Source: a virus. Taken from it: 64,000 bases of DNA. Shown here one piece after another: positions 963-11,042 of the stretch (within the stretch, counting starts at the first letter, position 1; every line of letters begins with the position of its first letter). The translations under genes and the position numbers were made by a program. Location: positions 1 to 64,000 of the IMG/VR virus record IMGVR_UViG_3300032334_000315; one strand, given 5' to 3'. Under the pieces are notes generated by a model. The model saw nothing but the letters and a program-made list of their open reading frames with translations. It was not told where the DNA came from and searched no databases.

Positions 963-1038
963 TGGTACTACCTCCAAGATTCGAACTTGAACTCCGGCGT
1001 CCACAACACCGGGTGCTTACCAATTACACTAAGGTAGC
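963..1038 (-). tRNA. tRNA-His(GTG), A73, no encoded G-1
   Basis: CGGTG-TTGTGGA-CGCCG anticodon arm, acceptor GCTACCT/AGGTAGT, ACCA. Confidence 0.92.
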
Positions 1039-1622
1039 ACAAACTGCTTCTGAATAAGATTCATATTTGTTGTTACTGCCACGCGATCGGTATCGGACTG
1101 ATTATGCGATACTTGATGAACTAACCAACCGGGAAACATAATCATCTGCCCAGCTTTTGGCTTATAGCTGAACACATTATAATGTTCAGGATTAAGACTA
1201 ATCCATCCTAATGTCGATCTGGGATCGAGCAGACGAATGTTTCCGCCTTTATCTCCTACATCCACATAATAAGTGGCTGCAATCGTATTCATTCGATGAT
1301 TATGAAATCTGTATTCTTGACCATATTGACGAAAATTGATCCAACCTCTAGCATGCCTAAAGTAGTCTGGCTTGTATTCCATCTCAAAAAATTCTGTTGC
1401 ATATTTAGCCGCAGATTCCAAAAAGAAATCATGAAGTATGTTTATGCCTTCATTATATCTATGACTCCAAATATTTCTATCTTTTTCATATTCGAAAACG
1501 TCCAAACTACCTTGATCGGCAACTCCTTTAAGATTGCCGTTCAGGATGACTTCATTGATTCTTTCGAAATCTGGTAAATCAAAAATTGCTACCGGTGTTG
1601 AAAACAGATTTAATTTCTGCAT
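1029..1622 (-). CDS. putative 2OG-Fe(II) oxygenase (TIGR02466-like)
   Basis: LFSTPV start, W-N...HNH, YY, DPR, FPGWLVHQV...R motifs. Confidence 0.8.
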   Translation of the reverse strand: MQKLNLFSTPVAIFDLPDFERINEVILNGNLKGVADQGSLDVFEYEKDRNIWSHRYNEGINILHDFFLESAAKYATEFFEMEYKPDYFRHARGWINFRQYGQEYRFHNHRMNTIAATYYVDVGDKGGNIRLLDPRSTLGWISLNPEHYNVFSYKPKAGQMIMFPGWLVHQVSHNQSDTDRVAVTTNMNLIQKQFVLP

Positions 1623-3598: not shown

Positions 3599-3676
3599 TG
3601 GTCCTCCGTATCGGATTTGAACCGATGATCTCCGCGCTTGAAAGGCGGGTATGTTGGACCGCTACACCAACGGAGG
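3599..3676 (-). tRNA. tRNA-Glu(TTC)
   Basis: Loop CTTTCAA, irregular anticodon stem, CCA. Confidence 0.85.
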
Positions 3677-3765: not shown

Positions 3766-4020
3766 TTACGGGATATGGTTCCCGCAAACCTGACGCTCTA
3801 CGTACCCGTGAGGAGTGCGATTCCACACAGTAGCACACCGCGGGCGTCGGAGTGGTGCATAATACGGCCTAGGAACAGGCTGCGGTATATACACTGGCTC
3901 CTGCGCGATATACCGCGGAGGCGGAACGTAAACGTCCATGGTAGGTCGAGGACCATACACGGTAGCATTGCAGCCCGCGAGCGCGAGGGCTAATGCTGAG
4001 ACGGCTGCAATGCGGATCAT
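3766..4020 (-). CDS. proline-rich lipoprotein
   Basis: Signal peptide with lipobox LAGC; Pro/Tyr-rich body. Confidence 0.75.
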   Translation of the reverse strand: MIRIAAVSALALALAGCNATVYGPRPTMDVYVPPPRYIAQEPVYIPQPVPRPYYAPLRRPRCATVWNRTPHGYVERQVCGNHIP

Positions 4021-4382
4021 GCTACACTCCATTCCATTTCATCTTCGGTTTCAATCCATTCGGAACCGTCATACTCTCGTAGAATGTACCGCGTACCAGG
4101 TGCTAACTCACGGATGCACAGGTCAGCACAATAACCAGACGCAGCCTTACCAAGTTCCTCTACGACCTGAGCGAGAACAGGATCTGTCCGCTCAATATCC
4201 CATTCATTGAAAAAGTCACCCTCATTCATTACGCTAGTACCGATACGGAATCGGACATTGCGAAAACTAACTTCGGACTCTTCTTCGGTAAAAGGAACAC
4301 CCTTTATCTCGAGGTACCTACGAATGGCAGCGTCAGATAAACCAAAGCCACCATAACAACCATTATAAACGATCTTAGTCAC
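4017..4382 (-). CDS. hypothetical phage protein
   Basis: KIVYNGCYGGFGLS...ERTDPVL...EYDGSE pattern. Confidence 0.8.
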   Translation of the reverse strand: MTKIVYNGCYGGFGLSDAAIRRYLEIKGVPFTEEESEVSFRNVRFRIGTSVMNEGDFFNEWDIERTDPVLAQVVEELGKAASGYCADLCIRELAPGTRYILREYDGSEWIETEDEMEWSVA

Positions 4383-4398
4383 CTTGTCAACCTCTTTG

Positions 4399-4599
4399 TT
4401 AGTGGCGGTCGCGGAAGGATTCGAACCCTCGGCCCACGGAGTAGAAATCCGTTGCTCTATCCAGCTGAGCTACGCGACCTTTACGCTTGTAGCCTTTGCG
4501 AGATGCAACGACACGAGCATGGTATTTAGTAGTAGCCAAATCAATCGCAATCGGGTTACGCTTTGATCCGCTTGAGTTTACCGATGATTTCCCAGTCAT
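4399..4599 (-). CDS. ArfA-like small basic protein; ORF runs on through tRNA-Arg
   Basis: NPIAIDLATTKYHARVVASRKGYKRK resembles the ArfA core; first 40 codons precede the tRNA. Confidence 0.55.
   Translation of the reverse strand: MTGKSSVNSSGSKRNPIAIDLATTKYHARVVASRKGYKRKGRVAQLDRATDFYSVGRGFESFRDRH
4403..4479 (-). tRNA. tRNA-Arg(TCT)
   Basis: ACGGA-TTTCTAC-TCCGT, GCCA. Confidence 0.94.
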
Positions 4600-4756
4600 A
4601 GGTTTTTACCTTCGTCTTTCTATCGACAACAAAGTCCATTTTGTGCCCGGTTTTCTCTTCCAGGTACTTAACGGCCTCGGCTAACGTATCGAACACCTTT
4701 TGACCAGTGGTGTTATTTATATTCGGTTTCGCGAGATATCGTGTGTCTGTCGTCAT
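4556..4756 (-). CDS. hypothetical protein
   Basis: ORF directly behind the promoter at 4763-4791 (possibly near-leaderless). Confidence 0.7.
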   Translation of the reverse strand: MTTDTRYLAKPNINNTTGQKVFDTLAEAVKYLEEKTGHKMDFVVDRKTKVKTYDWEIIGKLKRIKA

Positions 4757-4762
4757 TTTTAT

Positions 4763-4791
4763 ATCCTAGCATGCCAGAGAGGGATTGTCAA
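4763..4791 (-). promoter_or_regulatory. early sigma70-type promoter
   Basis: TTGACA-N17-TAGGAT. Confidence 0.7.
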
Positions 4792-10556: not shown

Positions 10557-10631
10557 TGGAGCGGGCGACAGGGTTCGAACCTGCGACGAACAGCTTGGAA
10601 GGCTGACACTCTACCACTGAGTTACGCCCGC
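10557..10631 (-). tRNA. tRNA-Gly(TCC)
   Basis: GCGGGCG acceptor, loop CTTCCAA, TCCA. Confidence 0.95.
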
Positions 10632-10676: not shown

Positions 10677-11042
10677 TTATGCCTGTCTTGTGAGATAGTT
10701 TGGACGCACATATCTTGCACCAAAATATTCTTTGACCAACTGAATAACAATCTGATCGTCATATTCCTTGCATGAGAAAACATCGAGGTACATAGCATTA
10801 CCACCCATGCCATCATCTGGCACAAAATGCGCTACGATATTTGATGTTTCGATTAACTGTACCAATGTGTAGCCGGCCTTGTTGCCTGAGCCAAAGTTAA
10901 CAATCTGTGGTTCACCATAAGCGACCATATCAATATCTTTGACCAAACGCTTGACGAAATAATAGATGTTCTCCGCATCTGTGATTGCTGCGTGGTCTAG
11001 TTCAGCGCAGTCCAATAGGAGGTGATAACCCCAGTATGACAT
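10677..11042 (-). CDS. speD: S-adenosylmethionine decarboxylase proenzyme
   Basis: GYHLLLDC, QLIETSNI..HF, YLDVFSCK. Confidence 0.85.
   Translation of the reverse strand: MSYWGYHLLLDCAELDHAAITDAENIYYFVKRLVKDIDMVAYGEPQIVNFGSGNKAGYTLVQLIETSNIVAHFVPDDGMGGNAMYLDVFSCKEYDDQIVIQLVKEYFGARYVRPNYLTRQA

Follow-up and report, generated by a model that had tools for sequence, protein, structure and literature searches.

The locus examined here raises two linked questions: whether a short phage reading frame that runs without a stop codon into a tRNA gene encodes a ribosome-rescue peptide of the ArfA type, and whether processing of that tRNA turns its message into a non-stop mRNA. The window, that is, the whole stretch of 64,000 nucleotides that was analysed, belongs to a viral record of 154,689 bp with 43% G+C. 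ARAGORN places 19 minus-strand tRNA genes between 75 and 4479 and a twentieth at 10557. The reading frame in question (4599..4480, minus strand) has 40 codons, with a core of KRNPIAIDLATTKYHARVVASRKGYKRK, and lacks a stop of its own. Codon 40 (AAA, Lys) ends at 4480 and the first base of a tRNA-Arg(UCU) with encoded CCA is 4479 (4479..4403, minus strand; ARAGORN, with 68 bits against Rfam tRNA), leaving a spacer of 0 nt at a codon boundary. No in-frame stop precedes the tRNA. The first one, a TAA at 4401..4399 (minus strand), lies 2 nt past the CCA of tRNA-Arg and is reached only by read-through of the unprocessed transcript, which gives a 66-aa product; this frame (4599..4399, minus strand) appears in the ORF listing as MTGKSSVNSSGSKRNPIAIDLATTKYHARVVASRKGYKRK followed by GRVAQLDRATDFYSVGRGFESFRDRH. 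The ORF listing and ARAGORN together confirm what the initial annotation had described, namely the absence of a stop before tRNA-Arg(TCT) and the position of the tRNA 5′ end, 4479, at the codon boundary after K40.

The sequences upstream of the ORF resemble those of an expressed gene. A Shine-Dalgarno-like GAAGG (4609..4613, minus strand) is located 9 nt before the ATG at 4599. The first 44 nt of the ArfA-like ORF are overlapped by an upstream ORF of 66 aa with unassigned function (orf66; 4756..4556, minus strand, from the ORF listing), the TAA of which falls within the KRN codons, and the conserved KRNP motif of the ArfA-like ORF begins at this stop. The same upstream ORF is syntenic in three relatives (L007, L009 and L013). 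Further upstream there is a sigma-70-like promoter, TTGACA-17-TAGGAT with TG (4791..4763, minus strand), which is a consensus match only. As no terminator-like site was found between this match and tRNA-Arg, the ArfA-like ORF and the tRNA should share one transcript. The predicted folding of the RNA from 4395 to 4625 is no more stable than that of shuffled sequences (z 0.08), and no extra regulatory hairpin is seen. A single metatranscriptome run holds one contig of 162 nt over 4524-4685 at ~96% identity, a match that cannot show ends, strand or transcription.

Comparison with relatives indicates that the ORF is a gene. In L013, which is 63% identical to the window, 31 of the 40 codons differ, and codons 13-40 contain 15 synonymous and nine non-synonymous changes; over codons 15-40 the synonymous sites of this pair are saturated and pN is 0.21. 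For the non-overlapping codons 15-40 the dN/dS ratio (Nei-Gojobori) is 0.06 against L007 and 0.23 against L009. Both the ATG and the GAAGG are retained in L013. The 40-mer matches phrog_20887 with an E-value of 5.6e-5, its residues 13-40 aligning to positions 3-30 of the 46 in the profile, and the match in the whole-genome search has an E-value of 1.2e-5. These observations bear on the possibility that the ORF is untranslated and that 4480-4599 is simply the 5′ leader of the tRNA together with the end of the upstream gene, or what is left of a decaying gene that insertion of the tRNA truncated. The shortness of the ORF, its overlap with the upstream ORF, the absence of an own stop and of the C-terminal family tail, and the frequency with which open frames abut tRNAs by chance would all fit such an origin. 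However, the motif positions have accumulated many synonymous changes under strong purifying selection, the start signals are conserved, the motif is retained in 11 peptide variants, and the phrog match is independent of the window clade, so that this explanation is very improbable. Given the purifying selection, the ORF is very probably translated, as the initial annotation had assumed, and its status as a real gene is highly probable.

The family to which this gene belongs is large. Run against 1.84 billion representatives, a profile of the window clade and its relatives retrieves 828 clusters (E<=1e-3), with the consensus KRNPIAKDLRTPKYRMRVVKSKKxYxRKxKHK. A tblastn search with the 40-mer gave weak matches in two phages, to an annotated protein of 43 aa in Acinetobacter phage Acj9 and to an ORF that lacks an annotation in Agrobacterium phage Atu_ph07; both of these are members of Pfam DUF7230 (PF23876). 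The DUF7230 model does not match the window peptide itself, and a 52-aa relative (L013) reaches an E-value of 5e-4 and 20.6 bits, which is below the cut-off of 27 bits. The core motif (K/R)(R/K)NP(I/V)A...(F/Y)...(V/I)V...Y.RK is nevertheless present in the window peptide, which has the core KRNPIA...VV...Y.RK in common with DUF7230 / phrog_20887 proteins such as Acj9 gp003, and in alignments A1-A3 the residues N15, A18, Y37, R39 and K40 of the peptide are invariant or nearly so. Typical members are ~40-50 aa long and carry a basic xKHK or KFKK tail, and their ordinary stop is located 3-45 (most often 7-23) residues beyond Y.RK. The window 40-mer is without this tail; in its clade the tRNA replaces both tail and stop, and a 12-residue N-terminal extension overlaps the upstream gene. 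The members found in cultured phages (of Acinetobacter, Sinorhizobium, Roseobacter, Agrobacterium and Pelagibacter) are annotated as "hypothetical protein", those of Acj9, phiM12 and RcXuper being ordinary annotated ORFs, and the hosts of the cultured phages with family members are mostly Acinetobacter and alphaproteobacteria. DUF7230 is mentioned in no paper found by the literature search. In Sinorhizobium phage phiM12 the member SmphiM12_363 is located two genes upstream of a RelA/SpoT-family gene (L098, 144805-146564), which is another translation-stress-related neighbour.

The initial annotation had compared the peptide by eye with the core of ArfA. For the window peptide itself this likeness is not recovered by a Pfam model: ArfA (PF03889) matches neither the 40-mer nor the 66-mer even at an E-value of 10, a search of the whole phage genome with the same model gave no match, and no ArfA chain was matched when the PDB was searched with the sequence of the 40-mer or with the family profile. 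For the family, on the other hand, the likeness stands, and profile similarity to ArfA was found. Alignment with hhalign of 156 family sequences, with bridging members left out, to an E. coli-type ArfA alignment gave a P-value of 2e-5 and a probability of 77% over 44 columns. The ArfA alignment, seeded with the annotated arfA of MG1655 (P0024), is narrow in that its 120 homologues among the matches listed are all at least 80% identical to E. coli ArfA, and a broader alignment might raise or lower the score. The real scores (25.6-33.3) are above those of all 40 column shuffles (best 15.3) and of the reversed profile (10.6), so the match does not reflect basic composition only. In the register of hhalign, which agrees with the one that the initial annotation had seen by eye, N15, Y26, R29, V30, Y37, R39 and K40 of the window correspond to N14, F25, R28, V29, Y39, R41 and K42 of ArfA, and the two share the pattern N.I..(L)....(F/Y)(R/H).RV...(K/R)K..Y.RK.

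Intermediate sequences connect the two families. Two proteins retrieved by the window-family profile, P0268 (…RNPIAKALRTSAFRSRIVKSKKGKGSYSRKH…; 37 bits) and P0286 (34.3 bits), pass Pfam ArfA, the gathering score of which is 25.5 bits, and the same is true of two viral loci found with window-family patterns, L076 (31.9 bits) and L084 (30.4 bits). Three further proteins (P0264, P0228 and P0253) match both the family and the ArfA models weakly, and family intermediates carry the KKGKGSYxRK of ArfA. A tblastn search of phages with the intermediate P0268 gave no matches, probably owing to the low-complexity filter. Relatedness to ArfA therefore holds at the level of the family and is not demonstrable for the window peptide alone; judged from these profile comparisons, the family is with high probability ArfA-related.

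Like the window peptide, the ArfA of E. coli and other beta- and gammaproteobacteria (YhdL, PF03889) is small and basic, but there are differences. The SRKGYKRK of the window aligns with a gap of three residues to the basic C-terminal segment of ArfA (KKGKGSYxRKGKH...), the part that occupies the empty mRNA channel. The GKG insert is missing, and whereas ArfA extends to about residue 55, the 40-mer would end at the counterpart of K42. Residues 43-48 of ArfA, ordered in the mRNA channel, have no equivalent in the 40-mer. In the hhalign register, the A18 position of ArfA aligns with Ile19 of the window and with Lys in the family consensus; in E. coli ArfA the A18T substitution abolishes RF2 activation (PMC8012679). 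Such differences leave room for a DUF7230 product whose binding to the ribosome or to RNA serves something other than ArfA-type rescue, for example the modulation of host translation, its likeness to ArfA being no more than a shared basic rRNA-binding segment. The lack of a Pfam ArfA match for the window peptide, the non-conservation of the A18-equivalent position and the absence of the KGKGS insert from most family members would agree with such a role, as would the best PDB match of the family profile (A2), which is not ArfA but the N-terminus of uS14 type Z (KKSMIAKQQRTPKFKVQ vs KRNPIAKAVRTPAFKMQ, 11/17 residues identical) at a non-significant E-value of 0.16. Yet the 44 columns of the profile-profile match span the N-terminal RF2-contacting part as well as the channel part and score far above shuffles, the intermediates form a continuum up to bona fide Pfam ArfA members, some members have the in-ORF terminators typical of ArfA and BrfA, and a phage tmRNA co-occurs. 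A purpose unrelated to rescue is accordingly quite unlikely, and the balance tips slightly towards a rescue function of the peptide.

The second question concerns the junction. Taken alone, it is statistically unremarkable because long open frames before tRNAs are common (several of the 21 tRNAs of the genome have stop-free upstream frames of at least 40 codons) and because the coincidence with a codon boundary is a 1-in-3 event; RNase P cutting would in any case remove the stop whatever the frame. The junction exceeds chance because the frame encodes a conserved protein family and because the same junction is found in diverged relatives. In L007, L010-L014 and L107-L120, as in the window, no nucleotide separates the RK codon from the start of tRNA-Arg(tct). 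Counted together, 15 related contigs have this 0-nt junction. They comprise nine tRNA-Arg sequences and 11 variants of the peptide, and the core identity of these variants to the window goes down to 16/29. Fourteen of the viral contigs were found with a DNA pattern of YKRK plus tRNA start, to which L007 adds the fifteenth; since this pattern requires the junction, the count shows its breadth and not its frequency. Identity to the window is 95-98% for L010-L012, 93% for L007 and 63% for L013 and L014, loci that came from viral contigs searched with protein patterns and from metagenome contigs.

Conservation of this kind could still have arisen as a by-product of compaction, or of tRNA or homing-endonuclease replacement, with no role in control. 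The useful product of an ArfA-like rescue gene would then be the 66-aa read-through protein made from unprocessed transcripts, or 40-mer that escapes tagging, and any coupling to tmRNA would be incidental. The tRNA array offers a precedent. The gene for a 197-aa 2OG-Fe(II) oxygenase (Pfam; 1622..1029, minus strand) overlaps tRNA-His (1038..963, minus strand) by 10 nt, its TAG (1031..1029) falling within the tRNA. The oxygenase gene of relatives with 88% identity (L100-L103) enters tRNA-His in another frame and stops 15 nt in, so that the arrangement is kept despite the frame change. Processing of the tRNA would strip the oxygenase stop too, and stop-less junctions may be a packing habit of the array, as this second stop also lies inside a tRNA and does so in relatives.

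The tRNA-Arg site is, in addition, a homing target. In L008 and L009 an Endonuclease_7-type homing-endonuclease gene and a different copy of tRNA-Arg(tct) have been inserted 10-11 nt into the old tRNA-Arg (L008:221-700; L009:781-1240), of which 5′ and 3′ remnants are left. The ORF has thereby gained an ordinary stop (…KRKGRV(V/A)KIELS and stop, 49 aa) and is intact in two diverged copies. A strong hairpin at these loci (~-15 to -17 kcal/mol) encloses the new ORF stop and the ribosome-binding site of the endonuclease. The comparison of the window with L007 looks mosaic, as if the tRNA had been exchanged along with the 3′ half of the ORF, and the tRNA-Arg of L007 is only 57/77 identical to that of the window. 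Synteny is otherwise loose; in L013, for example, two ORFs that separate GP88 from orf66 in the window are absent. The by-product explanation would also account for the 40-mer being without the conserved tail of the family and for the ordinary stops of most phage homologues.

These stops were surveyed across the family. An ordinary stop 3-45 residues after Y.RK, with no in-ORF terminator, is present in 46 of 54 non-redundant phage homologues, and when the 3′ ends of the ORFs were scanned in 54 non-redundant viral loci, none contained a hairpin or a terminator. In all five members picked by hand for their odd hydrophobic tails (L090, L091, L093, L094 and L095), a biased sample, a T-run follows a GC-rich hairpin within the ORF and ahead of its stop, which is the design of bacterial arfA and brfA (PMC8012679). 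Two of them, L090 and L094, adjoin chromosomal-type genes, L090 being on a 603-kb contig of a genome assembly, and L091 is beside T4-type regA and clamp-loader genes. The expectation that homologues, too, would run into tRNAs or terminators is thus borne out by the 15 contigs in which the ORF runs into a tRNA and the five picked members with terminators, and it fails for the large majority with ordinary stops. The initial annotation had itself regarded ordinary stops in homologues as damaging to its reading, and to this extent the reading is weakened, also by L008 and L009, which gained a stop and kept the gene.

Several observations nevertheless argue for a junction that is maintained. The 0-nt spacing has been kept over 11 peptide variants and nine tRNAs while synonymous sites became saturated, even though the site could easily have acquired a stop or a neutral insertion. 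Other ORF-tRNA junctions in the same genome have their own stops, one at 3766, 7 nt before tRNA-Lys(ttt), and one at 10677, 45 nt before tRNA-Gly. Non-stop designs recur independently within the family. The read-through tail is not conserved, the stop being in the anticodon loop in most relatives (52 aa) and past the CCA in the window (66 aa). On this evidence a junction that is merely a by-product seems unlikely.

The preferred reading is that of an ArfA-like peptide made from a tRNA-processed message and controlled by tmRNA, and the phage has a tmRNA gene of its own. The encoded RNA is full-length, permuted and of the alpha type, and its tag is ANDNAPISYALAA (ARAGORN; Rfam alpha_tmRNA 107 bits, gathering 50); the gene is located outside the window at ~139301-139706 of the genome (locus L097:852-1207, minus strand) next to tRNA-Gln. 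Among the relatives that bear the junction, G003 and G004 also have a tmRNA (104-108 bits), and G001 has a weaker match. Neither an SmpB gene nor an RF-1/ArfB-type domain was found in the phage genome. The tRNA-His (963-1038, minus strand) is without the extra G-1 and has the discriminator A73, features that we take to be those of the unusual alphaproteobacterial type, and from these and the tmRNA type the host is probably an alphaproteobacterium. The DNA polymerase is ~51% identical to T4-like cyanophage polymerases, and the sequencing runs that hold the sequence are mostly lake and freshwater DNA metagenomes. ArfA has been reported only from beta- and gammaproteobacteria (PMC8012679), whereas the ArfA-like gene described here sits in a phage whose host is probably outside these groups.

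Starting from a real and conserved gene, an ArfA-related family, a conserved stop-less 0-nt junction and a phage-borne tmRNA, we infer that RNase P cleaves this transcript, that the peptide is tagged and active in rescue, and that the arrangement has a selective value, in the following way. Early transcription from the promoter at ~4791 would place orf66, the ArfA-like ORF and tRNA-Arg on one RNA. RNase P carries out the 5′ maturation of tRNAs, and its cleavage at 4480/4479 would leave an mRNA that ends after the Lys40 codon without a stop; it is likely that at least some transcripts become non-stop through tRNA processing. Ribosomes that reach the 3′ end at Lys40 would stall with an empty A site, and the host or phage tmRNA would tag the peptide for degradation. 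Untagged 40-mer would then accumulate only once the capacity of tmRNA is exceeded. The peptide most likely binds ribosomes stalled on stop-less mRNAs and helps release, and in its untagged form it would promote release on other non-stop ribosomes, presumably via RF2. For this reading as a whole, with ArfA-like rescue function, a message made non-stop by RNase P and coupling to tmRNA, we estimate a probability of about 0.4. That tmRNA-coupled control has been selected is a prediction made with some reserve, at odds below even. More tentative still is the picture of a freshwater T4-like phage lineage with a self-contained rescue axis, consisting of its own alpha-type tmRNA and an ArfA-like peptide from a stop-less message made by RNase P, in which tRNA maturation and spare trans-translation capacity would jointly set the output of the rescue factor.

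The proposed circuit resembles known ones in logic and differs from them in its parts. The bacterial arfA message is non-stop as a result of RNase III cleavage or an in-ORF terminator, and its product is subject to tmRNA tagging (PMC8012679); in the phage, the stop would instead be lost by excision of the abutting tRNA. BrfA of Bacillus subtilis is likewise an RF2-dependent backup rescue factor whose mRNA is non-stop and whose synthesis is repressed through trans-translation (PMC8012679), but it is unrelated in sequence and a rho-independent terminator inside its ORF removes the stop. A phage-encoded ArfA has been noted once, at the level of annotation and transcripts: gp30 of pelagiphage HTVC027P, an ArfA-domain protein in a phage of SAR11 (an alphaproteobacterium) that is transcribed early and late (PMC12753301). 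Compared by description, gp30 differs from the window peptide in passing Pfam ArfA directly, and the publication mentions no stop-less design or tRNA junction. No publication found by the literature search describes a rescue factor whose mRNA becomes non-stop through excision of a tRNA. In mitochondria, the tRNA punctuation of transcripts has a comparable effect, since mRNAs whose genes encode no complete stop codon receive their 3′ ends when the flanking tRNAs are excised. The mitochondrial stop codon is then completed by polyadenylation, whereas bacteria have no such completion and the message stays non-stop. The novelty of the present locus would lie in tRNA-based loss of the stop for an ArfA-type rescue peptide.

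If the proposed reading is correct, the locus would represent a third independent route to ArfA/tmRNA feedback, after RNase III cleavage and in-ORF terminators, and the first ArfA-type system in which a tRNA acts as the stop remover. It would be a case of convergent evolution, in which one feedback circuit has been assembled from different parts. Phages would then import, besides tRNAs, a backup ribosome-rescue factor that is wired to trans-translation by the logic of bacterial ArfA, which suggests that ribosome stalling on broken mRNAs would limit phage infection. The stalling might come from host mRNA decay, from RNA-cleaving defences or from the processing of the phage tRNA array. A function would also be provided for a large uncharacterised family of 828 clusters, and the family could extend ArfA-type rescue to alphaproteobacteria, hosts thought to be without ArfA.

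Two further features of the array were observed. Directly after tRNA-Arg there is a perfect sigma-70 consensus, TTGACA-17-TATAAT (12/12; 4362-4390, minus strand), which overlaps the GTG start (4382) of the next gene, encoding a 121-aa phrog_16527 protein. The tRNAs at 879-952 and 3599-3676 (both minus strand) have the anticodons CTA and TCA and are labelled Pyl and SeC by ARAGORN; they are potential amber and opal suppressors, and tRNAs with these anticodons recur in relatives (L008, L010 and L100-L103).
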